Source: an archaeon (GTDB lineage: Archaea; Nanobdellota; Nanobdellia; Pacearchaeales; GW2011-AR1). Taken from it: DNA of 53,455 bases. The notes below the pieces were generated by a model. The model saw nothing but the letters and a program-made list of their open reading frames with translations, ran no database searches and was not told where the DNA came from. Within the stretch, counting starts at the first letter, position 1. Every line of letters starts with the position of its first letter. Both the position numbers and the translations under genes were made by a program. Below are positions 9,994 through 35,690 of this stretch, piece by piece. The stretch lies in NCBI GenBank assembly GCA_030679115.1, contig JAUXTS010000009.1:1-53455 (forward strand), read 5' to 3'.

Positions 9994-12900
9994 AAAAAAG
10001 TTTAATTTTCTTATTTGTATTTGTTTTCCTATTATCTTATGCAGCAGCTGCAACATTTACTCCTGCTCAAAGCACAAGTTTTGTAAATTATCAGAAAATG
10101 TCAAGTCTTGGATATTATGCTCCGGAAGGGAGATTATCAACATATTGGCCTCAAATGGATGAAGCAAATAAAGAAAGCTGCACTTCAAGACAGGATATTT
10201 TATTGCAGATAGCTCCAGGAGGATGTCAGCCGGCTGTTGTAAGAAGTGATTTGCTTGCCGAGCAAAATGTTCCGGTTTTCTGCCAAGTTATGGCTCTGCA
10301 GATTAATCCTTTGATAAATGTTCAAGAGATAAGCAATATAAGATTCACCGGAAACTATCCTAAAGAAATAGCTGGAACAGGATTCCATCCAGCAAAAGCT
10401 GCACTAAGAACAAATGATATTCTTCTCGGAAGCCCACTGACTAATAATATAGGTTATGTTGTAGTAATATTAAAGAAAAATGAAAAAGAAAGTTCCCTTC
10501 CTGATTTTGTAAATGTCACTCTCAGCGCACAAATAAGCTATGATGCAAAAAATGCATTTGGAATTGGAAGAAGTGATTTCATTCTTGAGCCAATGACTGA
10601 TGAACAATGGAATAAAGAAAAAGCAAAGCAATCGTTCTGGGGAGGAGCTTATTCAATACGAGCCGAAAGTGTAGAAAAAGATTATGCTGTTGTTTCAGTT
10701 TATTATCAAGACAGAAAAATATCAACTCAAAAAATAAAGAGAGGAGAAACTTCAAGTGATTTATATCTCCCAGGAATGTATTGCAGAGCCGCTCTGCAAT
10801 TGCAATTTGTAGATACAACTGTTGCACAAACACGGGCTAAATTAGAAATAAGAAGCGGAGACGGAACAGACACAGTAGATGTTTATTCAGGAAGCACATT
10901 CCTAAACGATAATTGCAGAGTAGAAAGTATAATTGCTTCTGCTGATGGTTCAACTGGAAATGTAACACTGAGATGCTCCCGAACAGGATTAAGTTCTGAA
11001 AGATTTACTCTATCCTTAAAGTCGGCAACTACTGGATTAATCACAGATAAAAATTTCGGAACTGATTTGGATATAAAGTTTAATGAAACAATAGAATCCT
11101 ATGAAAAAGTTATAGATTATCCGCAGGAAAGAGAAAACGATGCGAAGGAACTTCCAAGATATGGAGAAACTGCACTATCTGAAGCAATTGATTTCGCAAG
11201 AAGTTATGGAAAAACTTCAACCGAATCAAGATTAATAAAAAAATTCATGGAAACTTATCCAGATTCCCAACTAATAAATTCCAAAGGGTATCAAGCCAGA
11301 CTGGACGAAATTGGAAAAACAGACGATTCAAATGCAGTTTACAGCATTGAGATAAGCAACTCTTTCAAATCTATAAGACTTGCTGGGTTTGTTCAGCCTA
11401 AAGAACAGCCTGCAGCTTATCTATCAATTGATTCACAAATAGAAAAACTTGTTATTGGAACTAAAAAAACATTCTTTATAAAAGATAGTGCTGGAAGAGA
11501 TATTGAAAAATATATTATAATAAAAACTCTTGATACAAATAAAGTTGTTCTTGATACAAACTGTGAAGAAGCAGGAACTCTTTTTGGAGTTGAGCTTCTT
11601 CTTGACAACCCTGAAAGAGTATCCAAAACTCTTTGCGGACACGTTATTGGAATAAATAGAATAGAGACAACAGAATCTGCAAAAATAAGAGTTATTCCTT
11701 CATTCAAGGATACACGAACTGAAACTAATCTCACAGTCGCAATAGGAATTGAAAAAAGAGCCATTCAATTATCTCCTGTAAAAACACAGGAAAAAATCAC
11801 TGAACTGAATAAAACAATAATTAAATGGGAAGGTATATCTAACAATCTCGCAAAAGTTGTTACTGGAATGAAAGGGGCCTGCTTTGCTACAGCTGCAACT
11901 CTTACTTTCAAGAATTTCTTAGTTGGATTAAGTGGTGAAGCTCTTGCAAGACAAAAAGTTATGAATGGAGAAAGCGGTTGGAAAGAATTCTGTAAAAACG
12001 AACTTGCAAAAGAATCAAGCAAATATTCAAGCCTTGATGACTGCTTTAGTTCAAATTCAGATAAAATTGATAACGATGTTTCTCTTATGAGCACCCAGAT
12101 AAATAAATTAAACAATGATGTAAAAAGCATAGATTCCAGTTCAGTAGAAAAGGGCTCATTGGGAGAGAACAATGTAGATAGTGCTAAAGCCAGACAAGGT
12201 TATGTAGATTCAATCAAAAAAGAATTTCCAGATAATCCTATTGCACAAAAAGTAAATACTGGCATGACAACTGATGAATTGAGAAATACTTGGCTTCATC
12301 TAAGATTAAATAAAAACCAAGCCAGTTTAAGTGAAGAAGGAAAAACAAGAGTTAATAATGAACTTGGCAAAATCAACAAGCAGATTGAAGAAGAAATAGC
12401 TTTCCAGAAAAAATACACTTCCGCACAGCAACTTACCGGAAAAGGATATGCTACTCCTTTCTATGGAGCCGAATTTGCAAAGAGTGTAAGTTATGCAGAT
12501 GTCCGTCCTCTAACTGGAATCTCTTCTAGTGATGCTATATCAACTCAACTAAAAACCAATTCTGATATTACAGCAACTTCAACTATAATGACTGCTAACG
12601 GAGCTTATATTCTTGGATTGCAAGATGCACAAGGAACAGGAAATTATATTCCAAAAATGGCTATAAATGCCGACACAAATAAAGTCGTAACAGGAACAGA
12701 ACTTTCTCAGTTAATGTCACTCAATGGCATCGGAGCAATAAAAAAAGCAGATTCATCAACATATAACAATCCTATGAGAACTGCCGAAGTTAAATATTAT
12801 GAAACCGAGCCTTACAAAGGAATGCCTGCAATAGTTCCATTTGATACGCAAAGAGGCTGGTATGCTGCAACTAAACAAACTATTCCGGCTTTAGGAGGAA

Positions 12901-15470: not shown

Positions 15471-15556
15471 TATGCGGAGAACAGGTACTAGCAGAACTTC
15501 GTTCCGCGGTAACTCCAACATTTACATGTTGAAGTATTCGAAATTCGAATCCTTTA
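15471..15556 (-). repeat. tRNA-Leu trailer element: inverted T-arm copy, T-loop copy, hairpins H1 and H2, repeat of the tRNA 3' end
   Basis: In tRNA sense: TAAAGGATTCGAA-TTTCGAAT-ACTTCAACATGTAAATGTTGGAGT-TACCGCGGAACGAAGTTCTGCTAGTA-CCTGTTCTCCGCATA. The last 15 nt match the tRNA end CCTGTTCCCCGCATA with one mismatch. Confidence 0.8.
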
Positions 15557-15640
15557 TGCGGGGAACAGGATTCGAACCTGTGTAAGCACTAAGCTACTTG
15601 GTCCTAAGCCAAGCCCATTTGACCACTCTGGCATCCCCGC
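15557..15640 (-). tRNA. tRNA-Leu (anticodon TAG), class II with long variable arm
   Basis: GCGGGGATGCCAGAGTGGTCAAATGGGCTTGGCTTAGGACCAAGTAGCTTAGTGCTTACACAGGTTCGAATCCTGTTCCCCGCA. It has a CTTGG/CCAAG anticodon stem, loop CT-TAG-GA, and T arm ACAGG-TTCGAAT-CCTGT. Confidence 0.9.
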
Positions 15641-15729
15641 AAATCTGAGATTTGTGGGCATTGGGATGAAATCCCTCAGCCCGCATAAATTAAAGTAATA
15701 AAAGAGTGTTTTAAATTTAACTAATAGAA

Positions 15730-16053
15730 TCAAGCTACAATCAAATCTTCTCTCAAGGCAGTTCTCTTAGCAAGAATCCAATCAAGTTTTATCAAATTGC
15801 TCACAAAAGAATGAGTTACATTCAATTTATAATAATCTGACTTTCCAATTCTCCTGGTTTTAACAACCATTCCGGAAATTATGAAGTGAGGAAAAAAAGT
15901 TTTTAGAGAGTTATAGCTGACATTTGCTCCTCTTGCAATTTCAGTCACAGGAAAATCAAAAAACTGATTATCTATCAAAAAATCAATTACTCGTAGTTGT
16001 GGAGTATCTCCGAACTGCATCAAAAACAGCGATTTATTTTCTTTAGTTTTCAT
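15730..16053 (-). CDS. Winged-helix DNA-binding protein (putative transcription regulator)
   Basis: 107 aa. LRVIDFLIDNQFFDFPVTEIARGANVSYNSLKTFFPHFIISGMVVKTRRIGKSDYYKLN looks like a wHTH fold. Confidence 0.55.
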   Translation of the reverse strand: MKTKENKSLFLMQFGDTPQLRVIDFLIDNQFFDFPVTEIARGANVSYNSLKTFFPHFIISGMVVKTRRIGKSDYYKLNVTHSFVSNLIKLDWILAKRTALREDLIVA

Positions 16054-16154
16054 GATTATTATTCTTATTATTCTTATTATTTAAATCTTTCTATTACTGA
16101 TACCATTATTTCATTAATGGAAACATTTATAATTAAGCTTTTTCAAATATATTC

Positions 16155-16415
16155 ATGTCTTTTGATTTGGAAAAAGCACAGGGGATGTTCAAATTAACCA
16201 GAAAAAATAATTGGAATGCCTGCTATGACAGATTAGAGCATTTCAAAAGATTTGAAAATCTAAAATCCATAATAAAAGAACTTTCTAATATCAACTGGAT
16301 AATAATTCACAAAAAGCCAAATTTTATAGGAATATCTCTAAATACCAAATTCAAAAAAGAGGTAGTAGAATTTATAGAAAAACATATGCCTCATCTTAAG
16401 GGAGTAATACAATAA
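16155..16415 (+). CDS. Hypothetical protein
   Basis: 86-aa ORF with an ATG start. No family recognised. Confidence 0.45.
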   Translation: MSFDLEKAQGMFKLTRKNNWNACYDRLEHFKRFENLKSIIKELSNINWIIIHKKPNFIGISLNTKFKKEVVEFIEKHMPHLKGVIQ

Positions 16416-17339
16416 CTACTTATCTGTAGAATTAGCAACCTTTGCCTTAAGTTTTTCTTCCAAATCAAGTCTGTCAATTAATTCTTTGTATCTGTTTCTG
16501 ATTGTAACTTCAGTTATTCCTGCAACATCTGCAACTTCTCTCTGTGTCTTCTTTTCATCATGTACTAAAGCTGCAACATAAAGTGCAGCAGCTGCAATTC
16601 CAGCAGGCCCTCTTCCAGAAGTCAATTCTGAAATATCTGCTTTCTTTAAAATTTTCAAAGCTTCATTTTGTGTTTTCGGACTTAAATGCAAAATAGAAGA
16701 AAATCTTGGAATATAATCTTTAGGAGAACTCGGAGTTACTTTGATTTTCAACTTTCTTACTATAAATCTATAAGTTCTTCCAATTTCTTTCCTTTCAACA
16801 TCGGATGCTCCTGCAATTTCATCTAAAGTTCTTGGAATATTGTATGAACGGCATGCCGCATAAATACACGCAGCAATTACAGATTCCATTGACCTTCCAC
16901 GAACAAGTCCTCTCTGTAATACAAAATTATAAACTCTTGACGACTCATCCCTTACAACTGAAGGCAGATTCAAGAATGAAGCAACCCTTCTAAGTTCAGC
17001 CATAGCAAGTCTAAGATTTCTTTCTATAGATGTTGATACTCTTTCCTGCCATTTTTTCAATCTAAGAAACTTTCTTGTCTGCCCTGCTTCCAAACGATAA
17101 ATATCTGATATTTCTCCTACATTTGTTGTTAATCCCTTATCAAATTTTTGCAAAGAAATCGGTGCTCCACCACGTCCTTTCTTGTCAGATTTATCAAATT
17201 GTCCGCCCATATCCTGTCCGGTATCAACCATCTTCTCTTCTACTATCAATCCGCACTCATTGCATATTATCTCACCTTTTTGGTCATCATAAGTTAAGTC
17301 TACACTTCCGCATTCAGGGCATCTTTTAACATATGTCAT
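16416..17339 (-). CDS. tfb: Transcription initiation factor IIB (TFB)
   Basis: N-terminal zinc ribbon CPECGS...CNECG, B-linker, and two cyclin-like repeats with the HTH TQREVADVAGITEVTIRNRYKEL. Confidence 0.95.
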   Translation of the reverse strand: MTYVKRCPECGSVDLTYDDQKGEIICNECGLIVEEKMVDTGQDMGGQFDKSDKKGRGGAPISLQKFDKGLTTNVGEISDIYRLEAGQTRKFLRLKKWQERVSTSIERNLRLAMAELRRVASFLNLPSVVRDESSRVYNFVLQRGLVRGRSMESVIAACIYAACRSYNIPRTLDEIAGASDVERKEIGRTYRFIVRKLKIKVTPSSPKDYIPRFSSILHLSPKTQNEALKILKKADISELTSGRGPAGIAAAALYVAALVHDEKKTQREVADVAGITEVTIRNRYKELIDRLDLEEKLKAKVANSTDK

Positions 17340-17428
17340 TGGTAATTAAGGAAACAAAAGGTTTATAAAGGAATTGCAAAGAGGGTATTTAAATCTTTCT
17401 AATTATTTTAAAAATTATCGTCGGAAAA

Positions 17429-17791
17429 CTATTTTCCAATAAGAACTGCATTGACATGTCCTTCTTGAGATGGACGATTGGTAATTCTTGCTTTTCCTAA
17501 AGAAGTTAATATAATTGCTCCCTTAACCAATCTGTTCTGTCGGGCAAAAAACTTATTCTGCGGAGTTTCTTCTACATTGATTATTTTTGCTTTTTTTGCT
17601 TTTCCCTTTTCAATAACATTGGCTATATCTGATTTGAGAACAAAAGTTTTCTTATTGCCTCCCAAAATCCTGATAATTTTTCTTTTTAGCTCTCCCAAAA
17701 ATACTCTCTTCTCCTGTCCTTTTCTTTCCAGCTTTCTGGTTTTTCTAAACTTGTGATATTTTCCGCCGGTTATCTTTCTTCCGTAATTCAT
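17429..17791 (-). CDS. rps8e: 30S ribosomal protein S8e
   Basis: MNYGRKITGGKYHKFRKTRKLERKGQ... Start trimmed to the internal ATG at 17791. Confidence 0.85.
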   Translation of the reverse strand: MNYGRKITGGKYHKFRKTRKLERKGQEKRVFLGELKRKIIRILGGNKKTFVLKSDIANVIEKGKAKKAKIINVEETPQNKFFARQNRLVKGAIILTSLGKARITNRPSQEGHVNAVLIGK

Positions 17792-17910
17792 AATATGAAT
17801 GGAAAAAGTCGATTTAAATAGTTTTTTATTTAAGAAAATCAATATTTTATCCGAAAAAATATCTTTCTTATCGCAGATAGATTTATATATAAATAAAATT
17901 GAAAAAGATT

Positions 17911-18159
17911 ATGGTTAGCGGAATCGAGAGACCTCTTGACCTTTTGAACCAATCAAAGGGAAAAGAAGTTCTTGTTCAATTGAAAGGAGAAAAGCAATTC
18001 GTTGGTACTTTACTTGCCTTCGACATACATATAAATGTAGTCTTAGACAATGCCAAGGAAATGCAAGACGGAGAAATGAAGAAAAGCATCGGCCTGACTT
18101 TTTTGAGAGGCGATACAATAATCTTCATATCGCCTGCTTCTACTTCAAGGAACAAATAA
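17911..18159 (+). CDS. Sm-like (LSm) archaeal protein
   Basis: RPLDLLNQSKGKEVLVQLKGEKQFVGTLLAFDIHINVVLDNAKE...LRGDTIIFISP matches the Sm1/Sm2 motifs. The track start is TTG, so I use the ATG at 17911. Confidence 0.88.
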   Translation: MVSGIERPLDLLNQSKGKEVLVQLKGEKQFVGTLLAFDIHINVVLDNAKEMQDGEMKKSIGLTFLRGDTIIFISPASTSRNK

Positions 18160-18242
18160 GCTTAAGTCATTATTTTTAGTTTAGGCACAAAGCACGTGAA
18201 TTCTATTCATGGCTTATGACTATTCAAGATTAGTTGGAACTT

Positions 18243-19139
18243 TTATAAAACCACTTTCTCAAAATCCTTCGCCAAAGAAACATTCTTGAAAATCTTCTTA
18301 GCTTCTTTCTCAATCATTTCAAGATTGCGTTCATATCTCTGTGAAATATGCGTTAAAAATAGCTTCTTCACTTTTGCTTTTTTTGCAATTGTTGCCGCAT
18401 CAGCAGAAGTCAGATGAAGATATTCTCTGGCTTTTTCTTTATCTTTTATAGAAAAAGCGGATTCTGCTATTAAAATATCTGAATCTTTTGCAATTTTCAC
18501 AGCATTTGAATTCATTCCGGTATCTAAGATAAAAGTAATTTTCTTTCCTTTTTCTATATATGAAACAGAAGATGCCTTTATTTTCATCCCATTTATTACA
18601 ATATCTTTTCCCTGCTGAAGATTTTTTATCAATGGAGTATTTGGAACTTTGAATTTCTTAAGTTTCTTTTTGTCTATTCTTCTTCTTTCTTCAAACACTA
18701 TGGAATAAGCATTTACTGGAGTGCCATGAGACATACTTTCAGCTTCAATATGAAAATCCTTGTCTTTTATGAATATTCCTGAAACCTCATGAACTTCTAA
18801 TTTTATGTTTATTCTTTTTATTAACTCTCTTATCAGAGAAATATAATGATTAGTTCCTTTTGGCCCATAAATTTTCAATGTCTTTGAGTAATTCATCATG
18901 AATAGCGTTTGAAGCAATCCTGGAAGCCCCAAAATATGGTCTCCATGCCAATGTGTAATTAATATCTTATCTATTTTAGTAGGGCTTATTCCCGCTATTT
19001 TCAATTGCTTTTGAGTGCCCTCTCCGCAGTCAACTAGTATATTTTCCCTTCCAATGTCTACGAATATTGCCGTATGATTCCTTTTAGCCGTAGGAATAGA
19101 ATCTCCAGTGCCCAAAAAAGTTATTTTAATCTCTTCCAT
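18243..19139 (-). CDS. rnz: Ribonuclease Z (tRNA 3' endonuclease)
   Basis: ITFLGTGDSIPT..., metallo-beta-lactamase HWHGDH motif, C-terminal LFLTHISQRY. Confidence 0.88.
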   Translation of the reverse strand: MEEIKITFLGTGDSIPTAKRNHTAIFVDIGRENILVDCGEGTQKQLKIAGISPTKIDKILITHWHGDHILGLPGLLQTLFMMNYSKTLKIYGPKGTNHYISLIRELIKRINIKLEVHEVSGIFIKDKDFHIEAESMSHGTPVNAYSIVFEERRRIDKKKLKKFKVPNTPLIKNLQQGKDIVINGMKIKASSVSYIEKGKKITFILDTGMNSNAVKIAKDSDILIAESAFSIKDKEKAREYLHLTSADAATIAKKAKVKKLFLTHISQRYERNLEMIEKEAKKIFKNVSLAKDFEKVVL

Positions 19140-19176
19140 AAATTGATTAGGTTAAATTGATTTAAATAAGTAATGT

Positions 19177-20403
19177 TTAATGGCTCTTTTTATCGGACAG
19201 TTCTTTGTAAATCTTAAGCGTTGATTTTGCGATAATTGGCCAATCAAACATTTTTGCTCTTTCAGCAGCAAGAGAGCCATATTTTTTTATTAAATTTGGG
19301 GAACGCATCAGTTTTATTATCTCGTTTGTAATCTTTTTTGCTTTCGGTTCAACCAGTATTCCAGAGTTTCCTACAACCTCTGGGATTCCCCCTACATTTG
19401 TGGCTACGATTGCATTCTTACAAGCCATCGCTTCAAGAATACAAAGTCCAAATGATTCGTAAAGAGAGGGTTGCACATAAATATTAGAATTTTGATAGTA
19501 TTTTGCCAACTCAATAACGTTTAGGGGCCGAGAAATCCAAATAAATCTCCCAAGATATTTTTTTTGTAGTTCAATAAATTTGTCCTGTACCAGTTTTAAT
19601 GTTGGAATCTGAGTCTCCTGCAATATGGCTGTAAAAGTATATTTTTTATTTGCATTCAGAACTCCCTCTATTATTTCAGGCAACATATCCACTCCCTTTT
19701 CCTTGCTAAATCTGCTTACGGTCAAAACATTTAAAGATTTATTTTTAGAAGGATTAAACAATTTAAGATCTACCCCATTTGGGATTACAACTGTTCTTTT
19801 TGATGAGCCTTTAAACGTATTCAATACCTCTTTTTTAACACTCTCTGATACTGCAATAAGCTTATCTGCATCAGCCAGAGTATCTTCTATCCAAGAAGTT
19901 ACCTTGAAAAGTTTTTTCTCCTCTTCAGTCATGGAAGAAAGTCTATTTCTCTCGAGAGCATGCACTGTATGCACCCAAGGTATATTATTAAGATATTTTT
20001 GCATAAATGCTGAACTCGTAAGCCAGCCATGTGTATGAATAACATCAAATCTTCTTCTTGTATTTTCATATAGAAATTCATTTAATACTTTGCTTTCAAA
20101 AACCGCATACCTTATTCTCTTTTGAATAACTGAATCTCCAACTTCAAAATCAAAATCACTTTTTAAGAAGTGAAGTATAATTTTTCCTTTCTCAATATGA
20201 ACATTGTGCTTAGAATCTTCTTTCCCATTCGTAAAAACATGAATTTCACATCCAAGTTTAGCAAGATGAGTCACAAGATTATAGGCGTGTATTCCTACGC
20301 CACTAGTAGAAGGTTTTTGAAATGGATAGTAATAACTAATCAGAGCAACCTTAAAGGGTTTTTCAAAAAAAGAATTAAAAAGGTTTAAAACTTCGTCAAA
20401 CAT
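19177..20403 (-). CDS. Glycosyltransferase, GT4 (GT-B) family
   Basis: SGVGIHAYNLVTHLAKLGCEIHVF and the E-x7-E region PSLYESFGLCILEAMACKNAIVATNVGGIPEVV. Start trimmed to the ATG at 20403. Confidence 0.8.
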   Translation of the reverse strand: MFDEVLNLFNSFFEKPFKVALISYYYPFQKPSTSGVGIHAYNLVTHLAKLGCEIHVFTNGKEDSKHNVHIEKGKIILHFLKSDFDFEVGDSVIQKRIRYAVFESKVLNEFLYENTRRRFDVIHTHGWLTSSAFMQKYLNNIPWVHTVHALERNRLSSMTEEEKKLFKVTSWIEDTLADADKLIAVSESVKKEVLNTFKGSSKRTVVIPNGVDLKLFNPSKNKSLNVLTVSRFSKEKGVDMLPEIIEGVLNANKKYTFTAILQETQIPTLKLVQDKFIELQKKYLGRFIWISRPLNVIELAKYYQNSNIYVQPSLYESFGLCILEAMACKNAIVATNVGGIPEVVGNSGILVEPKAKKITNEIIKLMRSPNLIKKYGSLAAERAKMFDWPIIAKSTLKIYKELSDKKSH

Positions 20404-20462
20404 TAAATAGTAAGAACAAGAAACGATTAAAAGCTTTTTGTTTTCATAATAAAAGAAATAAA

Positions 20463-21059
20463 ATGGCAAATGAATCATTACTTAATCCTAATATCTTATT
20501 AATTGCTAAGGCGTTAATTATTATTGCTCTGAGTATTTTAATAGGTTATATTGGCAAATTCCTTTTGAGAAAATTTATAGATAAATTTATTCTTATTCGA
20601 GTATTTAAGAAAGACTTGTCTGCTTACGAAGTTGCAAAGATTATCAATAAAGTATTTACAGAAATAATTCAATGGATGATAATTCTGCTTGCATTGAATT
20701 ATTCATTAGTAATGTTTAATTTTAATTTACTCACGAACATATTTTCTTTTATAATATCTGAAATCCCAAAGATAGTCTTGTTTTTAGGCATTATATCTGC
20801 TGGATTGCTCATAGCAAAATTAATTACTTCGAGAATAAAATATAAAGAAATATCAAATGCGGAAGAAGTAAGCTTTGCAATTGAATTCGTTGTAATTTCT
20901 GCATTTGCGCTTACCGCCTTAGAATTTATAGGAATCAAAGCAACTGCACTTATTGAATTGTTTAAAGTAATATTGTATGCCATAGCTGTAATAATAATTA
21001 TTCTTGTATTCAGACCAGATATGTTGAAATCTAAGCAGAAAAAAGCTAATAAAAAATGA
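20463..21059 (+). CDS. Integral membrane protein, hypothetical
   Basis: 198 aa with at least 5 hydrophobic segments. Confidence 0.55.
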   Translation: MANESLLNPNILLIAKALIIIALSILIGYIGKFLLRKFIDKFILIRVFKKDLSAYEVAKIINKVFTEIIQWMIILLALNYSLVMFNFNLLTNIFSFIISEIPKIVLFLGIISAGLLIAKLITSRIKYKEISNAEEVSFAIEFVVISAFALTALEFIGIKATALIELFKVILYAIAVIIIILVFRPDMLKSKQKKANKK

Positions 21060-21120
21060 TGTGCCTCTTGCCTTAGATTGTCCCAGTAATGTTTATAATC
21101 TTATAAGCCTATTTTAAAAT

Positions 21121-21771
21121 ATGAAAAAGAGAGATGGACTTAGGATATTAATTGTGCTTCTATTTCTTTCAATAATTGTATTTATGTTTGCCTGGAATTC
21201 GTCAAATATCACAAATATGGTAATAATTGAATTTAATGACGAAAATAAATTCAATTCAGAAACAGGATTTCTGATAAAATCGCTTGATTATGTTATAAAT
21301 GGCAATAAATTAGATATCACATATTATTTGAAAGAAGAAATTAATCTGCCTCAAAAATTGAATGTTGAAAGTATTTTGAGAAGTTTTGATGGAGAAAAAA
21401 TTTCCGAATCCTATCAAAATATAACCCTTAGTGCCGGACAGACAAAAGAATACAAACTAATTTTAGATTATCCTTTGGATACCAATAAACCTCTTAAATT
21501 TTCTCTTACAATAAGCAATGAAAGAGGAAGCGAATGGACAATTAAGGAAATAGGCAAATCACGTTCATATATTACTGGACTTACTGCATTAGATTTAGTA
21601 AATGAAGGGAAAGTAGCATGGATATTGATGATAGTTATTCTGATACTTGTTTATCTAATTATAATCTATCTGAAAAGACATCATGCACGAACAAGAAATA
21701 TCTTTCCAGCACATAAGAGAAAGGTTTTAATTCCCTTAGATCTTAAAGAAAATAATAAAAAGAGGGTATAA
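21121..21771 (+). CDS. Membrane-anchored extracellular protein, hypothetical
   Basis: N-terminal and C-terminal TM segments flank a roughly 130-aa beta-rich region. Confidence 0.55.
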   Translation: MKKRDGLRILIVLLFLSIIVFMFAWNSSNITNMVIIEFNDENKFNSETGFLIKSLDYVINGNKLDITYYLKEEINLPQKLNVESILRSFDGEKISESYQNITLSAGQTKEYKLILDYPLDTNKPLKFSLTISNERGSEWTIKEIGKSRSYITGLTALDLVNEGKVAWILMIVILILVYLIIIYLKRHHARTRNIFPAHKRKVLIPLDLKENNKKRV

Positions 21772-22331
21772 TGGAAAAAATATCAAACCTTGAACAGAAA
21801 GAACTTCTTCAAAAATCAGAAATAAGTATTTGGTTAGATAATTACAATGATATTTTTTCAGTTTTTGATTCGCGCCATTATCTTGAAAGAGCTCTTTCTG
21901 TAGACTTTTTAGATGAGATAAAAAGGGCAAGCCGAGATAAACCTTCTGGAGGATTATCATTGAATATGCTTATCCCAATTAAACAAAGAAATACGACTCA
22001 TGAAACTTTGATAAAAAAAAGGCTGAAAGAGCATTTCAAGAAACATACAGATATTCTTGAAAAAGATCAGGGTGAATTAGTTTGGCAAGGAATTTATTTT
22101 CTTTTTTTTGGCTTAATATTTATGTCTGTAGCTGCATATATATTGTTTTTCTATCATGATAAAATAAACTTTTTTAAGGAATTTCTTATTGTGCTTCTTG
22201 AGCCCGGAGGATGGTTTTTGTTTTGGGAAGGGCTGGCATTGATTATTTTTGAAACAAAGAAAATAAAACCAGATTTAGTATTTTACAGAAAAATGAGTAA
22301 AGCAGACCTTGTTTTTCATACTTATAAGTAA
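21771..22331 (+). CDS. Membrane protein, hypothetical
   Basis: 186 aa. 1-nt overlap (TAATG) with the preceding gene. Two TM segments in the C-terminal half. Confidence 0.5.
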   Translation: MEKISNLEQKELLQKSEISIWLDNYNDIFSVFDSRHYLERALSVDFLDEIKRASRDKPSGGLSLNMLIPIKQRNTTHETLIKKRLKEHFKKHTDILEKDQGELVWQGIYFLFFGLIFMSVAAYILFFYHDKINFFKEFLIVLLEPGGWFLFWEGLALIIFETKKIKPDLVFYRKMSKADLVFHTYK

Positions 22332-22344
22332 TATGTAAGATAAG

Positions 22345-22352
22345 TTTAAATA
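22345..22352 (+). promoter_or_regulatory. TATA box for tRNA-Arg(TCT)
   Basis: TTTAAATA centred about 28 nt upstream of tRNA position 1 (22377). Confidence 0.55.
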
Positions 22353-22376
22353 ACTTCTTTGTGATTTTTTGAGTAT

Positions 22377-22497
22377 GCTCCCGTAGCTCAGCCTGGATAG
22401 AGCACCTGCCTTCTATTGAAGGACTGAGTCTTCGATACATCGGAGACTTGTCTACGAAGTAAGCAGGGGGTCGCACGTTCAAATCGTGTCGGGAGCG
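22377..22497 (+). tRNA. tRNA-Arg (anticodon TCT) with 46-nt intron at 37/38 (22416-22461)
   Basis: GCTCCCG acceptor, GCTC/GAGC D stem, CCTGC...GCAGG anticodon stem, loop CT-TCT-A, T arm GCACG-TTCAAAT-CGTGT, CGGGAGC-G. Confidence 0.9.
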
Positions 22498-22626
22498 TTT
22501 AAAGGGATTTCATTCTTCAATCCCTTATTTCTCGATTTGAACTGCGAAGCACGTTCAAATACTTCAACATGTTAATGTTGAAGTCACCGCAGAGCTTTGC
22601 TCTGCAAGTGCTGTCGGGAGCGTTTA
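22498..22626 (+). repeat. tRNA-Arg trailer element: hairpin, inverted T-arm copy, direct T-arm copy, H1, H2, 15-nt repeat of the tRNA 3' end
   Basis: AAGGGATT...AATCCCTT (22502-22526). CGATTTGAACTGC (22533-22545) is an inverted copy of the T arm. GCACGTTCAAAT (22549-22560) is a direct copy. H1 is ACTTCAACATGTTAATGTTGAAGT (22561-22584). H2 is CACCGCAGAGCTTTGCTCTGCAAGTG (22585-22610). TGTCGGGAGCGTTTA (22612-22626) is identical to 22487-22501. Confidence 0.85.
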
Positions 22627-22640
22627 CACGATACTAAATC

Positions 22641-22648
22641 TTTAAAAG
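22641..22648 (+). promoter_or_regulatory. TATA box for tRNA-Cys
   Basis: TTTAAAAG, 24-31 nt upstream of tRNA position 1 (22672). Confidence 0.5.
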
Positions 22649-22671
22649 TGCTATATGTTTCTAAAATATAC

Positions 22672-22744
22672 GCGCAGGTGGGACAGTGGTTACTCCGGTC
22701 GGCTGCAGCCCGACTTTTCCCAGGTTCGAATCCTGGCCTGCGCT
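22672..22744 (+). tRNA. tRNA-Cys (anticodon GCA)
   Basis: GCGCAGG acceptor, GTCGG-CTGCAGC-CCGAC anticodon arm, T arm CCAGG-TTCGAAT-CCTGG, CCTGCGC-T. Confidence 0.9.
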
Positions 22745-22923
22745 TATTATAGTTTTGAAAGCCAGCGGAAAACTTTTTCTAAAAGTTTTTGCTGTTCGAA
22801 TCACTTCAATCTCTTTAGAGTTGAAGCTTCAAGATTCTATGAATCTTGACAGTGCTCAAGAATCAAAACTCAGGATTCTTGACATCACCGCGGAGCTTGC
22901 TCTGCGAGTGCTGGCCTGCGCTT
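22745..22923 (+). repeat. tRNA-Cys trailer element (expanded version with extra nested hairpins)
   Basis: AAAACTTTT-TCT-AAAAGTTTT (22769-22789). T-loop copy TTCGAAT (22795-22801). H1 variant ACTTCAATCTCTTTAGAGTTGAAG (22803-22826). TCAAGATTCTATGAATCTTGA (22829-22849). TCAAGAATC...GATTCTTGA (22856-22882). H2 is CACCGCGGAGCTTGCTCTGCGAGTG (22886-22910). CTGGCCTGCGCTT (22911-22923) is identical to 22733-22745. Confidence 0.85.
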
Positions 22924-23018
22924 TCATACTCTTTAACACATAAAACTCCCAGTTTAACGCCGACAATAAGTTTATAAGTATCTAAAATATAGAATTTTAT
23001 CACGGAGGTATTAAATTC

Positions 23019-23171
23019 ATGGCTACACAAGGATATTGCGTAAAATGCAAGAAAAAAGTAGATATAAAAGACCCAAAAGAGTCTCTCACCAAGAAAGGCA
23101 CGAAGATTGCTAAGGGAAAATGCCCTCATTGTGGAATAACTGTATGCAGAATGGGCGGAATCTGCAAGTAA
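23019..23171 (+). CDS. Small zinc-ribbon protein (DUF5679-like)
   Basis: Below the track cutoff. Translation: MATQGYCVKCKKKVDIKDPKESLTKKGTKIAKGKCPHCGITVCRMGGICK. GGAGG lies 9 nt upstream. Confidence 0.65.
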   Translation: MATQGYCVKCKKKVDIKDPKESLTKKGTKIAKGKCPHCGITVCRMGGICK

Positions 23172-23249
23172 ATAAACAAATTTTTATTAATTTTTTAATT
23201 TAATGCTTCTAAATGGAAAGTTTAAATATATTGATTGTAAATTAGATAG

Positions 23250-24767
23250 ATGAACAAGGGTAAAAAAGAAACAGCTAAAGAAGAGGAAAATAAGTATAAT
23301 CAAGTAATGGAATTAGCCTCCAGAAAAAGCCTGTTTTTCCCCTCAGCAGAAATATACCCTGATTCTCCAGCAGGTTTTTGGGATTTTGGCCCTTTTGGAC
23401 AGGCAATCAGAAGAAAAGTAATTGATTTCTGGAGGCATGAACTAGTGCAAAAAGAAAACATGTTAGAGATTCATGGTGCTCAAATCTTACCACAATTAGT
23501 GTTTGAAGGTTCTGGACATCTAAAATCCTTTGCAGATCCAATAATGCAATGTAAAAAATGTAAAAAATATGAAAGAGCTGACCAAATAATTGGAGAAAAA
23601 ATAGGGAAAAATGTTCCTGAATCATTAGCAATAGAAAAATTAGATGAAATGATTGCGGAACATAAAGTCAAATGTCCTAAATGTGGCGAAGAATTTGGAA
23701 AAGTTTCTAAATTTAATATGATGGTTGAAACAATTGTCGGTAAACCTGGAGAATTTAAAACTTTTCTAAGACCTGAAGCTTGTCAGTCTATATTTTTAGA
23801 TTTTGCAAGAATGACAAAAACAATGAGATTAAAATTGCCTCAAGGAATTGCACAGGCAGGAGGAGCATTCAGAAATGAAATTTCTCCAAGACAAAGCATC
23901 ACAAGAGCTGTTGAATTTGCACAAATGGAAGCAGAAATATTTTTTGATCCGATAAGAATAAATGAAATAAAAGACTTTGATAAAGTTGCAAATTACAAAG
24001 TTAACGTACTTAGATTAGGAAAAGAAAAAGTTGAAAAATTCAAAGCCTCCGAATTAATAAGTAAGAAAATCGTGCCTAAACAATTAATTGCTTATTTCAT
24101 GGCTCGCACTCAGCAAGTATGGAATAAAATGGGCATTCCTCTGGAAAAAATCAGATTTAGAGAAGTTGATAAAGATGAACGAGCGTTTTATTCTCTCGCA
24201 ACATTTGATTTTGAAGTTGAAACCAGTTTAGGATGGCTTGAATTAATAGCAAATAACTACCGAACAGATTATGATTTGAAAGGGCACGGAGAAAAATCAG
24301 GAACAGATTTAACTTATCTCACTCAAGAAGGTAAAAGAATAATTCCTCATATCTGGGAAATTTCCGCAGGTATTGATAGAACAGTTTATGCAATTCTCGA
24401 GCATTCATTGAAAAAAGGCAAAGAAGGATTATATCTTTCTTTGAATCCTAAATTAGCTCCTGCTGATTGTGCCATTTTCCCATTAGTAAATAAAGAAAAT
24501 ATGCCTTGTATAGCATTAGAAGTCAAAGAACTGCTCCAGAATGCCTGGTTTGATGTCTTATATGATGATTCTGGAAGTATAGGGAGAAGATATGCGAGAG
24601 TTGATGAAGTGGGTGTCCCCTATTGCATAACAATAGATGGCGATTCAACCAAAAAGAAAGATGTCACATTGAGAGAAAGAGATTCAGGCAAGCAGATAAG
24701 AGTCAAGATTTCCGAACTCTCAGACAAGTTAAGAAAACTTCTAAACAGCGAAATCAAATTCAAATAA
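23250..24767 (+). CDS. glyS: Glycyl-tRNA synthetase (archaeal/eukaryotic alpha2 type)
   Basis: FFPSAEIYPDSPAGFWDFGPFG, class II motifs (FRNEISPRQSITRAVEFAQMEAEIF), GIDRTVYAILEH, and a C-terminal anticodon-binding domain. Confidence 0.93.
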   Translation: MNKGKKETAKEEENKYNQVMELASRKSLFFPSAEIYPDSPAGFWDFGPFGQAIRRKVIDFWRHELVQKENMLEIHGAQILPQLVFEGSGHLKSFADPIMQCKKCKKYERADQIIGEKIGKNVPESLAIEKLDEMIAEHKVKCPKCGEEFGKVSKFNMMVETIVGKPGEFKTFLRPEACQSIFLDFARMTKTMRLKLPQGIAQAGGAFRNEISPRQSITRAVEFAQMEAEIFFDPIRINEIKDFDKVANYKVNVLRLGKEKVEKFKASELISKKIVPKQLIAYFMARTQQVWNKMGIPLEKIRFREVDKDERAFYSLATFDFEVETSLGWLELIANNYRTDYDLKGHGEKSGTDLTYLTQEGKRIIPHIWEISAGIDRTVYAILEHSLKKGKEGLYLSLNPKLAPADCAIFPLVNKENMPCIALEVKELLQNAWFDVLYDDSGSIGRRYARVDEVGVPYCITIDGDSTKKKDVTLRERDSGKQIRVKISELSDKLRKLLNSEIKFK

Positions 24768-24783
24768 TTCACACCTAAATAGA

Positions 24784-24791
24784 TTTATAAT
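24784..24791 (+). promoter_or_regulatory. TATA box for tRNA-Ala
   Basis: TTTATAAT, 24-31 nt upstream of tRNA position 1 (24815). Confidence 0.55.
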
Positions 24792-24814
24792 ATATCTTTT
24801 TATTGAATTTTCAA

Positions 24815-24885
24815 GGGCCCGTATTATAATGGTATTATTCGCCCATGGCATGGGTGAGACCCGAGTTCGATTCTCGGCGGGTCCA
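24815..24885 (+). tRNA. tRNA-Ala (anticodon GGC)
   Basis: GGGCCCG/CGGGTCC acceptor with the G3:U70 identity pair, CGCCC-ATGGCAT-GGGTG anticodon arm, T arm CCGAG-TTCGATT-CTCGG. The D stem is AT-rich and has one mismatch. Confidence 0.82.
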
Positions 24886-24969
24886 TCGAACGAGGAGAGT
24901 TCGATTCACTTCAACATGTGAGTGTTGAAGTTGTCCACGGAACTTGTTCTGTGGCATCGGCGGGTCCAT
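24886..24969 (+). repeat. tRNA-Ala trailer element (minimal version)
   Basis: ATCGAAC (24885-24891) is an inverted copy of the T-loop. GAGTTCGATT (24897-24906) is a direct copy. H1 is CACTTCAACATGTGAGTGTTGAAGT (24907-24931). H2 is TGTCCACGGAACTTGTTCTGTGGCA (24932-24956). TCGGCGGGTCCAT (24957-24969) is identical to 24874-24886. Confidence 0.85.
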
Positions 24970-25064: not shown

Positions 25065-25706
25065 ATGAATAGACGATTAAGAACTAGAGGAAATGTAAGC
25101 ATAGATTTGTTTAATGATACACGAGATAATACTTCAGGATATAAGGAAAGCATGATTCGTTTTGAATTGGTCAAAAGATTGCCCTTTGCCTCTTTTTCTC
25201 ATGGAGAATTTATGAGAAAATCAGCAGAATTAATTAAACTTGTTCAAAAATATCAAAGATTGGAACCTAAAGTCGAAATATTAGGGTTTAATAGCCCTCA
25301 AGATTGTCTTGCTTTACATGGACTTGACGGCGGACAAGATGATGCAACCGCACATAAAATTTTAGATGGAAGAAATTCATATTCTTTTGAAGAGTTTACA
25401 CAAAAAGATTATGAAAGAAATATAGAACCAGAATTAATATTGAAATCTGAAGAAAAAGATTCATTTATGATTTGTTTAACTGCAACTCCAGGTATAGAAA
25501 CTAACTTTGCAGGTATTAATGCTCCAAGTTATTATAGTTTTTTTAAGTCAAAGAATTTGAAAAGAAGATTACAATTTTATGGACAAACATTGGCTCCTGA
25601 ATTATTTGAAGCAATTGTAGAAAGATATCATAAGCCAGGGTTAACTCATTCATTAAGTCATAAATATAAAGATAGCATATTGAATTATTTACAATGTGCA
25701 ATTTAG
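25065..25706 (+). CDS. Hypothetical protein
   Basis: 213-aa ORF. A TATA-like ATATTTAAATA lies about 27 nt upstream of the ATG. No family recognised. Confidence 0.55.
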   Translation: MNRRLRTRGNVSIDLFNDTRDNTSGYKESMIRFELVKRLPFASFSHGEFMRKSAELIKLVQKYQRLEPKVEILGFNSPQDCLALHGLDGGQDDATAHKILDGRNSYSFEEFTQKDYERNIEPELILKSEEKDSFMICLTATPGIETNFAGINAPSYYSFFKSKNLKRRLQFYGQTLAPELFEAIVERYHKPGLTHSLSHKYKDSILNYLQCAI

Positions 25707-27924: not shown

Positions 27925-28437
27925 TTATGGCCTTGTCCAAGAAACTTCATAATAACTTACATCTCCCTCTTCATCAACAATTCCCAAAAGAAGATTTTTC
28001 TTGGTTGAATGAGCAATTCTATTTTTTGCAGAAAAATCATGCCAGCTTAATTGCTCGTTCTCTTTTGCCGTATAAAGAATCCAATGTGCATGCTCTTCTC
28101 CCGGCTTAACTCCTTTATCATAAACCCTGAATTCCGCCCCATATTTAAGCGCAGTTTTTACAATATATCCTTTTTTCCTTAAATCTGAAAAAACTATGCA
28201 CTTCGTCTCTATCTTTTTATCACCCCTTCTTGCTTTTCTCATTAAATCTTCAAAAGAAACTACCTTCTTACCAGATTTCAAAATCATTCTTTTTTCTGCA
28301 ATTAAAAATAATGCTTCAGCAGAGGAATATTCTATATGGCTTTCTTTTTTCTCTCCAAATTTAGATTTCTCATACCATGAAAATGCATCTGAAGAAGAAG
28401 ATATTATTCTGTCCCCTGTAAGATTTGCGTCTATCAT
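27925..28437 (-). CDS. endA: tRNA-splicing endonuclease EndA
   Basis: 170 aa. FSDLRKKGYIVKTALKYGAEFRVYDKGVKPGEEHAHWILY...STKKNLLLGIV carries the catalytic Tyr/His/Lys pattern. The size fits a homotetramer-type subunit. Confidence 0.88.
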   Translation of the reverse strand: MIDANLTGDRIISSSSDAFSWYEKSKFGEKKESHIEYSSAEALFLIAEKRMILKSGKKVVSFEDLMRKARRGDKKIETKCIVFSDLRKKGYIVKTALKYGAEFRVYDKGVKPGEEHAHWILYTAKENEQLSWHDFSAKNRIAHSTKKNLLLGIVDEEGDVSYYEVSWTRP

Positions 28438-28463: not shown

Positions 28464-28530
28464 GAAGCAAAGCTTCTTTTAAAGATTCCGTAGGAATCTT
28501 TAACCCATTCAACTCTTTTAGAGTTGAAGT
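28464..28530 (-). repeat. Orphan hairpin-module cluster upstream of endA
   Basis: Read on the minus strand: ACTTCAACTCTAAAAGAGTTGAAT (H1 variant), TTAAAGATTCCTACGGAATCTTTAA, GAAGCTTTGCTTC. The module order matches the tRNA trailers. Confidence 0.6.
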
Positions 28531-28591
28531 TTTAAACGTTTTCGTCAGATAACTTTTATAAATCTAAAAAACTAGATATATTCAGAAAAAG

Positions 28592-34205: not shown

Positions 34206-35522
34206 ATGTTAAATAGTATTAAAGAAGCGGTAAAAAAATTAGATGAACTTAGCAAACAAAAAAAGATTTGCGTAATAAGTCATTATGATACAGATGGAAT
34301 TACTTCTGCTGCGATTATCTCCCGTGCCCTTTCCCGTTGGAATAAGCAATTCTCCATAAAAATAATAAAAGGAATAGAAGAAGAAATCATAAATGCTCTT
34401 CCGGAAAAAGAAATTCTCCTTTTCTTGGATTTAGCTTCAAATAGTCTGGATTATCTCGCCAAAAAAAATACTGAAATCTTCATTTTAGACCATCATGAAA
34501 TAACTCAAGAAATTCCACAAAATGTAACTATAATTAATCCCTTAATTTTCAAAGAAGAACCAATTTCTGGGGCAGGACTGAGTTATCTATTTGCAAAAAC
34601 AATATCCCAAGAAAATCGTGATTTAGCAACTCTTGCAGTTATAGGTATGATAGGAGATACATTAGAAACAGATATTGGAAAATTAAACAGTGAAATAATA
34701 AAGGATTCTGAAACTATAATCCGAAAAGGGCTTCTTATTTATCCATCTACACGCCCGCTTGATAGAACCTTAGAATATTCTTCAAGTCCCTATATCCCTG
34801 GTGTTACTGGTTCGTTCAAAGGCACATTAGAATTATTAAAAGATGCCAACATAACTACTAAAAATGGATATTATAAATCATTAACAGAGTTAACAGATGA
34901 AGAAATGGGTAGTTTAATCACTGCAGTTATGCTTAGATGTGCGAACACAAAACAGCAGACAAACCTAATAGGAAATCTTTACCTTGTTAAATTCTTTAAT
35001 AAAATGGAAGATGCTAGGGAGATATCTGCTTTAATTAACGCCTGTAGTAGAATGGATTGCCCGAATATCAGTCTTGGATTTTGCTTAGGAAATAAAAAAT
35101 TCAAAGAAGAAGCAGAAAAGATATATATAAAATACAAACAGCATTTAATTTCCGCATTAAAATATGTTGAAGAATTAGAAAAAATTACTGGAAAAGATTA
35201 TGCAATAATCAATACAAAGGATTATGTAAAAGATACTATTATTGGAACAGTTACATCAATAATCTCTCGTTCTCCAGTCTATTCTGAAGGCACAATTATA
35301 GTGGCTCTGGCTTATAATAAAGATAAAATAAAGGTTTCTGCAAGAATAGCTGGACGCCACGGACGTAATGTTCGTGAAGTCTTGAGCAAAGTAGTGGTTC
35401 CTCTCGGAGGAGAAGTCGGAGGGCACCCCAATGCTGCAGGTTGCCTTATATCTAAAGAACTTGAAGGAAAATTCATCGAAGAGCTTAAAAAAACACTTGA
35501 AATAGAAGTAGTAAAAGTTTAA
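34206..35522 (+). CDS. DHH-family phosphoesterase, RecJ/GAN-like
   Basis: ISHYDTDGITSAAI, FILDHH, and a DHHA1 GGEVGGHPNAAG motif. Sits in the conserved archaeal position next to rps15. Confidence 0.8.
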   Translation: MLNSIKEAVKKLDELSKQKKICVISHYDTDGITSAAIISRALSRWNKQFSIKIIKGIEEEIINALPEKEILLFLDLASNSLDYLAKKNTEIFILDHHEITQEIPQNVTIINPLIFKEEPISGAGLSYLFAKTISQENRDLATLAVIGMIGDTLETDIGKLNSEIIKDSETIIRKGLLIYPSTRPLDRTLEYSSSPYIPGVTGSFKGTLELLKDANITTKNGYYKSLTELTDEEMGSLITAVMLRCANTKQQTNLIGNLYLVKFFNKMEDAREISALINACSRMDCPNISLGFCLGNKKFKEEAEKIYIKYKQHLISALKYVEELEKITGKDYAIINTKDYVKDTIIGTVTSIISRSPVYSEGTIIVALAYNKDKIKVSARIAGRHGRNVREVLSKVVVPLGGEVGGHPNAAGCLISKELEGKFIEELKKTLEIEVVKV

Positions 35523-35690
35523 ACATTCAATCTCGTAAAATTTAAAGGATTAAAGCTTCGTGTAAGCAAATCTTAAAAACTTCAATCTCGTAAGACCTCA
35601 AGGATGTAAATCCTTGATGGCCGTCAAGAACTGAAAGTTCTTGAGAGTTGAAGGAGTAAAGATTGCAGCGCAATCTTTAAAATCCCTCCA
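35523..35690 (+). repeat. Orphan cluster of hairpin modules (possible structured RNA)
   Basis: Direct repeat ATTCAATCTCGTAA / CTTCAATCTCGTAA (35525, 35580). An H1-variant outer stem CTTCAATCTC...GAGAGTTGAAG (35580-35653) encloses TCAAGGATGTAAATCCTTGA and TCAAGAACTGAAAGTTCTTGA. It is followed by TAAAGATTGCAGCGCAATCTTTA (35657-35679). Confidence 0.6.

Follow-up and report, generated by a model that had tools for sequence, protein, structure and literature searches.

Why four tRNA genes on one archaeal contig are each followed by a second copy of their own 3′ end, split by one and the same pair of hairpins, is the question raised by the stretch of DNA analysed here. The window, by which the whole stretch at its full length is meant, comprises 53,455 nt of an archaeon (Pacearchaeales; GW2011-AR1) and is deposited under GCA_030679115.1 as contig JAUXTS010000009.1, positions 1 to 53,455, forward strand. 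Its GC content is ~32%, and it encodes archaeal housekeeping functions, for example glycyl-tRNA synthetase (GlyRS; 23250–24767); the best relatives of its genes belong to named Nanoarchaeota, Pacearchaeota or Woesearchaeota (DPANN). Eight tRNAs were detected with Rfam; those for Leu(TAG), Arg(TCT), Cys and Ala(GGC) are followed by the split copy, termed cassette below, and those for Val, Thr, Met and Arg-GCG have ordinary flanks and no cassette. The cassettes have the appearance of a tiny mobile element of a kind not yet described, one whose insertion leaves the tRNA gene intact. They are read here as miniature non-autonomous cassettes of DPANN archaea, which are site-specific for the tRNA T-arm, restore the 3′ end of the tRNA and, in the form of a folded single strand, are mobilised in trans. 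We regard this reading as an even bet.

Layout and fold of the cassettes

A cassette measures ~70–110 bp, or ~180 bp with a nested insert, and its commonest form is a minimal unit of 85 nt. Read along the tRNA-sense strand, the unit consists of the intact tRNA, 0–12 nt of flank, an antisense copy of the T-loop and of the 3′ strand of the T-stem (e.g. GGATTTGAAC), a further 0–4 nt, the T-loop in sense orientation, in many cases together with some of the 5′ strand of the T-stem, the hairpins H1 and H2, and tRNA positions 61/62–73 plus flank. H1 is composed of (C)ACTTCAAY, 2–3 covarying pairs, a mostly GNRA-like tetraloop (GTAA, GTGA, GCAA) and RTTGRAGT, frequently with a bulged U; H2 has an outer stem of 3 bp, an internal loop that is asymmetric, with C facing GA, AA or UA, and an inner stem of 6–8 bp with variable sequence. 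The H1+H2 double hairpin is always located at the distal end of the cassette, between the T-loop copy and the repeated 3′ end, and sits at tRNA position 61/62 of a 5′-truncated second T-arm copy, directly 3′ of the universally conserved G53–C61 block. In 53 of 55 copies, the repeat begins at tRNA position 61 or 62; in most copies it ends 1 to 6 nt past the discriminator, and in arrays farther out. This segment (61/62 to the discriminator plus 1–6 nt) is found on both sides of the cassette, so that the tRNA stays intact.

All four elements of the initial annotation were recovered in the window and scored with a covariance model (R1), which was built from 56 copies. Behind the intact tRNA-Leu(TAG) (15557–15640, minus strand; ARAGORN; Rfam 60.2 bits), the cassette spans 15471–15556 on the minus strand (68.2 bits), with the antisense T-arm AGGATTCGAA at 15544–15553, the T-loop copy at 15536–15542, H1 at 15512–15535, H2 at 15486–15511 and the repeat CCTGTTC(C/T)CCGCATA, i.e. 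tRNA positions 61–73 plus TA, at 15471–15485; a four-way junction was predicted by RNAfold (z = −3.3). The intact tRNA-Arg(TCT) (22377–22497, plus strand; Rfam 50.6 bits) contains a canonical intron and is followed by the best-scoring cassette (22498–22626, plus strand; 70.9 bits; RNAfold z = −6.2), which carries a non-cognate T-arm palindrome (22502–22526), the antisense T-arm CGATTTGAAC (22533–22542), a copy of T-stem 5′ strand plus T-loop (22549–22560), H1 (22561–22584), H2 (22585–22610) and the repeat TGTCGGGAGCGTTTA (22612–22626). Downstream of the intact tRNA-Cys(GCA) (22672–22744, plus strand; ARAGORN and Rfam), the cassette covers 22745–22923 (plus strand; RNAfold z = −5.0) and gave two partial model matches of 40.9 and 19 bits; its parts are the 5′ strand of the closing stem, GCCAG (22764–22768), with a spacer hairpin, the T-loop copy with C61 (22795–22802), a covarying H1 variant (22803–22826), the nested insert N (22827–22885), H2 (22886–22910) and the repeat CTGGCCTGCGCTT (22911–22923). 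Finally, the cassette at 24886–24969 (plus strand; 53.4 bits) follows the intact tRNA-Ala(GGC) (24815–24885, plus strand; ARAGORN and Rfam) and comprises the antisense T-loop TCGAAC (24886–24891), the T-loop copy with C61 (24900–24907), H1 (24908–24931), H2 (24932–24956) and the repeat TCGGCGGGTCCAT (24957–24969). Searching the whole window with R1 gave no other full copy and nothing else above 21 bits.

The four direct repeats were verified as annotated. The H1 consensus proposed at first holds at three sites (Leu, Arg and Ala), which were matched with up to 2 mismatches against 0 expected in 100 shuffles, and is replaced in the Cys cassette by the covarying variant. For H2, the structure is conserved in all four copies, whereas with up to 3 mismatches the literal consensus is matched by the Arg copy alone; in the Cys copy, the H2 loop is one base shorter, which puts it out of reach of an ungapped scan. 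Likewise, the inverted T-arm copy in the spacer is clear for Leu, Arg and Ala and reduced to a 5-nt stem (GCCAG:CTGGC) for Cys.

In the spacer of the Arg cassette, the palindrome at 22502–22526 is a hairpin (AAGGGATT-loop-AATCCCTT) formed by an antisense and a sense T-arm foreign to the adjacent tRNA-Arg, and similar hairpins were seen in the spacers of L025, L032 and L097 (L-numbers are the labels of comparison loci and contigs). It looks like the module-free junction hairpin of another tRNA's cassette.

The module had been claimed to lie exactly at the junction of T-loop and T-stem. Upon its deletion in silico, T-loop, T-stem 3′ strand and acceptor 3′ strand were rejoined exactly for Ala, Cys and Leu, and with one base different for Arg, which places the insertion point at tRNA position 60/61–61/62. 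Such a clean restoration in three of the four window copies would also be expected of a non-canonical tRNA intron or of a split-tRNA relic, in which the module would be an intron at 61/62 and the second copy a decaying gene or a trans-splicing 3′ half, and the window does encode RNase Z (18246–19139) and EndA (27928–28437), both confirmed by Pfam scan. We nevertheless consider this explanation highly improbable. In every case examined, the module-bearing copy lacks the 5′ part of the tRNA or is mutated (A at position 61 in L024), and an intact copy is present; inspection of junctions and predicted folds revealed a linker-less four-way junction and no bulge-helix-bulge with 3-nt bulges; EndA is of the single-subunit type with 170 amino acids; and Cys has a single isoacceptor, so that a shared 3′ half would serve no purpose. 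A footprint of tRNA-intron mobility, as initially suggested, was not borne out either, given that among ~85 copies no module was found in a sole intact tRNA gene and that the junctions are without bulge-helix-bulge. Bulge-helix-bulge introns (no bulges, host copy non-functional) and split or permuted tRNAs (intact gene always there, one isoacceptor for Cys) were rejected as candidates.

The antisense run is 8–12 nt long and spans the module insertion point in most copies. Pairing across this point leads to a predicted linker-less four-way junction, formed by a closing stem, the T-loop palindrome, H1 and H2, with RNAfold z-scores from −2.2 to −6.2. A small self-cleaving ribozyme (junction without conserved unpaired core) and a C/D or H/ACA guide RNA (no box motifs) were rejected, as was the antisense segment as a rigid second half-site of a dimeric recombinase, its spacing from the tRNA end varying from 0 to 12 nt.

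Covariation statistics were calculated on 56 distinct copies. A standard pair was observed in 92.7% of cells, compared with 79.4% for shuffled and at most 44% for slid partners, and 151 cells were changed on both sides against 58 expected, a value reached by 0 of 500 shuffles; compensatory change was found in 8 of 9 H2 pairs. G-U pairs were frequent (29/56, 25/56 and 10/56 at three pairs) and A-C rare even where permitted by the search pattern, which assigns the fold to one strand (RNA or single-stranded DNA) and not to duplex DNA. In most copies, this is the tRNA-sense strand. These data show that the fold is maintained by selection, through compensatory change, and on one strand only.

A fold of this kind would equally suit a functional trailer RNA. 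Such an RNA would be co-transcribed with the tRNA, freed by RNase Z and folded into a four-way junction, its single-stranded tail having the sequence of the acceptor 3′ strand. For the host, it could, for example, take part in the processing or quality control of tRNAs, lure away a factor that targets tRNAs or function as a stable small RNA, and duplication and gene conversion could have spread it among tRNAs. Several observations speak for it: the G-U-rich, strand-specific fold on the tRNA-sense strand, the mostly GNRA-like H1 loops with a conserved bulged U, the antisense segment, which covaries with the host T-stem across genomes, an H1-like hairpin in the endA leader, and other conserved structured motifs directly 3′ of tRNAs in these genomes (motif K, see below). 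Moreover, a T-run of at least five lies between tRNA and cassette in only 14 of 80 copies, so that read-through is possible. The module gave no Rfam match, either at the gathering threshold (tRNAs only) or with E up to 10, and this counts against a trailer RNA, as does the distribution described in the following section, in view of which we hold it to be unlikely. If the trailer were functional, it would represent a new, widespread class of structured RNA linked to DPANN tRNA maturation.

Recurrence and patchy distribution at tRNA genes

The initial annotation had called for a search for further tRNA-linked copies, and pattern scans located the same family behind tRNAs in ~95 metagenome contigs. 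Nearly every copy is situated directly downstream of a tRNA on the same strand. GTDB species representatives, a collection that excludes the source genome of the window, were scanned with a strict H1 pattern and contained one relevant locus, L017, where in a Nanoarchaeota metagenome-assembled genome tRNA-Arg(CCT) is followed by the same layout; the other 19 matches were bacterial and were taken as unrelated without inspection. A degenerate pattern (T-loop plus H1) returned 99 metagenome loci, mostly from groundwater and sediment, 4 of which are chance matches within coding sequence. A same-strand tRNA just upstream, combined with an exact 3′-end repeat after a module of ~48–55 nt, was present for ~72 of 108 pattern matches, and the host tRNAs span at least 18 amino-acid identities. 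Copy and host share their T-loop variant in ~74 of 80 cases, counted by eye, with 6 of 44 flagged mismatches left after one-base shifts of the ARAGORN tRNA end had been set aside. Since each tRNA has its own duplicated 12-nt segment, the view that this is not one att site copied around was upheld.

Orthologous tRNA loci were compared in related genomes of conserved gene order, which had been picked via flanking genes and not via the module. The closest relative, L120 (GlyRS 92% identity), carries behind tRNA-Cys a truncated remnant (AGG-TTCGATTC-ACTTCAACACGC); its tRNA-Ala is 100% identical to that of the window, yet is without cassette and has a different structured trailer, and the Leu and Arg loci are not on the contig. 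In L172 (GlyRS 76%), the Leu, Arg and Ala sites are empty and Cys has a variant cassette keeping H2; at the Leu locus, the distance from the tRNA to the stop codon of an orthologous large open reading frame (ORF; 49% identity) is 18 nt in L172 vs 125 nt in the window. L173 (GlyRS 74%), again without Leu and Arg loci on the contig, has an empty Cys site and behind tRNA-Ala(GGC) an inverted H1+H2 module (12036–12088, minus strand), placed between the antisense segment and the 3′ copy, with an H2 related to the Ala H2 of the window. L050, which shares a gene downstream of tRNA-Cys, has a cassette at Leu and empty sites at Arg, Cys and Ala. The proposed comparison with relatives thus yielded empty sites, and the antisense segment is missing from them. 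For a functional trailer RNA, this patchiness among close relatives, including an identical tRNA-Ala, is unfavourable, and so are remnants and decayed distal copies.

Cassettes also occur in arrays. Tandem arrays of identical units were found in L068 and L101, units with different H2 in L071 and L084, and mixed arrays with other module families in L037, L048, L049, L056, L060 and L111; every array unit ends in a copy of tRNA positions 62–73. In L048 and L049, the copy nearest the tRNA is exact and the more distant one has diverged. An identical 26-nt H2 was observed behind different tRNAs (Lys in L086, Leu in L065 and L115). In addition to the inverted module of L173, one was found in L061 behind tRNA-Ser(GCT), where it adjoins the antisense T-loop. 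Both inverted modules keep the G-U polarity of their own strand, a further point against the trailer RNA.

The nested insert N is a hairpin pair of ~54 nt (TCAAGATTC..GAATCTTGA and TCAAGAATC..GATTCTTGA) located exactly between H1 and H2. Besides the Cys cassette of the window, it is present in L076, L100 and L112 and missing from the otherwise matching L117 and L107 (pairs L100/L117 and L112/L107), having been inserted cleanly and without target duplication. N appears to be a second, nested mobile double-hairpin element, and tolerance of a 54-nt insert at the H1/H2 junction is not what a functional trailer RNA would lead one to expect.

In L099 (tRNA-Val) and L089 (tRNA-Leu), 640–750 bp with two small genes separate the intact tRNA from a long tRNA copy that bears the module. 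By eye, the gene pairs resemble toxin-antitoxin systems (RelE-like; DUF433 plus PIN-like), and these two loci are cargo-carrying versions of the cassette. As judged from the contigs compared, cassettes are shown to be gained, lost, inverted, stacked and invaded by a second double-hairpin element.

The second copies vary in length, up to a nearly full-length tRNA with 640–750 bp of cargo (L099, L089, L024, L075), and the module position is unchanged throughout. This constancy could point to two separate processes, in which integrase elements leave attR remnants as partial tRNA duplications and an H1+H2 insertion element independently targets GTTCRAWTC, the double hairpin surviving only in redundant copies, given that insertion into a working tRNA would be lethal. 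The reversed module beside the antisense T-loop in L061 and the precise insertion of the double hairpin N without duplication are in line with this scenario, and att sites of archaeal integrases at tRNA 3′ ends are as short as 13 bp (PMC8371274). Module-free partial tRNA duplications at the same loci are rare, however, with 2 clear cases vs 78 tRNAs with module; empty sites lack the antisense segment, the dominant minimal unit of 85 nt is too regular for a deletion remnant, and no integrase is located nearby. We therefore rate two separate processes as quite unlikely.

Candidate route of movement and relation to known elements

No integrase or transposase had been visible in the window on first reading, and a Pfam scan of the 20 ORFs of its central part revealed none. 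Among the 149 ORFs surveyed within 4.5 kb of copies, there was no integrase or transposase within the recurrent Pfam families, no intI and no TnpA; all-against-all clustering of ORFs gave no recurrent protein family beside the copies beyond orthologues from conserved gene order. A phage database contained no match. In IMG/VR, the T-loop-linked pattern had 0 matches; a looser pattern matched at 46 loci, where the model recognised no real module. Full-text literature searches retrieved no description of the cassette layout. A small non-autonomous mobile element, one of the explanations offered initially, is the best-supported candidate, considering the many tRNAs involved, the patchy orthologous loci, the arrays, the inverted copy, the nested insert and the lack of a recombinase in cis, and the data fit cassettes moved in trans better than any alternative.

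For such cassettes, a recombinase encoded elsewhere in the genome would act in trans on the folded single strand. The antisense T-arm segment would pair with the copies of T-loop and T-stem 3′ strand and thereby rebuild a duplex mimic of the target T-arm, joined in the four-way junction to H1 and H2. The repeat of 13–18 nt may correspond to the core of a short att site or to a duplication of the target. The antisense/sense palindrome could be the product expected from fold-back (snap-back) synthesis, or from hairpin resolution, at a break beside the T-arm copy, and either process would explain why the antisense segment matches the T-stem of its host.

Several points weigh against movement in trans. 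The degenerate search pattern demanded a T-loop beside H1, so that the tRNA linkage of the metagenome copies is partly ascertained; it made no demand on the presence of an intact tRNA upstream, of H2 or of the 3′ repeat. Within the sequences compared, there was no excision product, no circle junction and no strictly isogenic pair of filled and empty sites, and movement is thus deduced from comparison alone. The mobilising enzyme was not found among the ORFs near copies. Terminal inverted repeats are missing and the repeat length varies (13–18 nt or more), a combination at odds with any standard transposase. In antisense as well as in sense orientation, the cassette includes T-arm sequence matched to its host; this would not be expected of a simple mobile unit, except if the sequence is templated on insertion or homology is needed for choosing the target. 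Lastly, the GNRA-like H1 loops, the conserved bulged U and the tRNA-sense orientation would suit a co-transcribed functional RNA equally well.

By analogy, the systems closest in logic would be tRNA-targeting integrative elements and integron cassettes with attC. Elements of tyrosine integrases that integrate into tRNA genes, including SNJ2 with its 13-bp att (PMC8371274) and CIME-like derivatives, likewise regenerate the tRNA, are flanked by a direct repeat of the tRNA 3′ end and accrete in tandem at one tRNA, and cargo genes, too, are shared by two cassette examples. The cassettes differ in their size of 70–180 bp, the lack of an integrase, the antisense T-arm segment, the T-loop copy split from the distal repeat by a double hairpin, and a conserved single-strand fold in place of a duplex arm site. 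Casposons also target the 3′-distal part of archaeal tRNA genes, with a similar duplication length of ~14 bp and solo remnants (PMC4779613). Their duplication, however, starts with the terminal 4 nt of the tRNA (CGCA) and extends into the AT-rich flank (PMC4779613), and they have terminal inverted repeats, Cas1 and PolB, whereas the cassettes have none of these and no genes inside, and their repeat starts at 61/62 and ends 1–6 nt past the discriminator. Miniature inverted-repeat transposable elements (MITEs) differ by their terminal inverted repeats, which the cassettes are without, and by a fixed repeat length, that of the cassettes ranging from 13 to 18 nt or more. Casposons and MITEs were both rejected as candidates, no terminal inverted repeats being present.

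Integrons resemble the cassettes in the arrays of short units at one anchor, in a hairpin end of conserved shape and variable sequence with unpaired bases (H2), in the strand-specific fold and in the occurrence of non-coding and toxin-antitoxin types. The H1 arms CTTCAAC/GTTGAAG are similar to the integron core RYYYAAC/GTTRRRY, by inspection only. In contrast to integrons, the anchor is a tRNA T-arm and not attI beside intI, the boundary lies at tRNA position 61/62 and not at G|TT, each unit ends in a tRNA-specific repeat of 12–16 nt, and no IntI is encoded near copies. A hitherto unrecognised site-specific recombination system of DPANN archaea can be proposed tentatively, possible but on the doubtful side, in which the tRNA T-arm would serve as an anchor like attI and short non-coding and toxin-antitoxin cassettes would be captured, stacked, shuffled and lost. 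Each of them would bear a folded single-strand site, namely a four-way junction mimicking the target T-arm and connected to the conserved double hairpin, and the recombinase, perhaps of a new family, would be encoded elsewhere.

MITEs, REP/REPIN sequences, hairpin elements derived from IS200/IS605 and mitochondrial double-hairpin elements are tiny, non-coding, multi-copy and hairpin-based and need an enzyme acting in trans. With such small palindromic mobile repeats the cassettes share the small size, the hairpins and a nested precise insertion (N), and they differ in being tied to one structural position of tRNAs, in the duplication of the tRNA end and in the host-matched T-arm sequence. As for IS200/IS605 elements, the module alone lies 3′ of GTTCRAWTC, has two hairpins and is strand-asymmetric, but its hairpins abut the ends without linker or guide, and the whole unit is duplicated. 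In E. coli, tyrT is reportedly followed by 178-bp repeats, each with the last 19 nt of tRNA-Tyr (Egan and Landy 1978). The repeat units after a tRNA, each ending in a copy of its own 3′ end, are alike; tyrT differs as a single locus of one species, with no module common to different tRNAs and no insertion at the T-loop junction.

If mobile, the cassettes would be among the smallest known site-specific insertion elements. An essential and universally conserved part of the tRNA, the T-arm, would then be used as a landing pad without damage, and this in host genomes of very limited gene content, from which few mobile elements have been described. A search for the recombinase could start from three features, namely the constant insertion point, the fold of the single strand and the palindrome that mimics the target. 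Integration that is programmable or directed to tRNAs is a use for which the enzyme could be of interest. In the window, partial tRNA copies are present at half of the tRNA loci, and they can confuse tRNA annotation, att-based prophage detection and genome binning.

Related motifs beside tRNAs and elsewhere in the window

A second conserved structured motif, K, was noticed directly 3′ of tRNAs or cassettes in L036, L043, L051, L086, L094, L107 and L112, and directly after tRNAs in L077, L089, L117, L120 (2093–2200) and L172. It has a covarying closing stem of 8–10 bp, with CCGCAGCGAG on the 5′ side and GAGCAAGAG(T)GAATCAGAAAT on the 3′ side, at times encloses an H2-like hairpin, and gave no match in Rfam. 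Other module families that end in a tRNA 3′ copy were seen in L062 (Glu), L048, L056, L025, L113 and L114 (Gly), L115 (Cys), L071 (Gly(CCC)) and L046 (Glu), two examples being ...CTGACGRCACTAAGAAT-hairpin-TCAG and CAACGAGCAAGTCGTTG plus CCTCAAAC..GTTGAGG; the H1/H2 family is thus one case of a more general layout.

In the window, the 5′ flank of tRNA-Leu (~15650–15690, minus strand) contains a minihelix-like structure, with an acceptor-like stem (GCGGGC...GCCCAC) around a GGGAT-loop-ATCCC hairpin, and a similar one is present in the spacer of L116. Between the Ala cassette and the HIT gene, an ORF of 213 amino acids without Pfam match is located (25065–25703, plus strand). It is missing in L120, where the tRNA-Ala trailer abuts HIT, which indicates a rearrangement downstream of tRNA-Ala.

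Just upstream of endA, the gene for the tRNA-splicing endonuclease, the presumed leader (28465–28536, minus strand) contains two hairpins on the coding strand, past a TTTAAA box, of which one is H1-like (ACTTCAACTCTAAAAGAGTTGAAT); this could reflect a regulatory link or a coincidence. A further intergenic element (35580–35653, plus strand) follows a DHH-family gene (34206–35519) and consists of an H1-like stem (CTTCAATCTC...GAGTTGAAG) around two N-type hairpins, followed by another hairpin. This element adjoins no tRNA, and hairpin modules therefore occur away from tRNAs as well.

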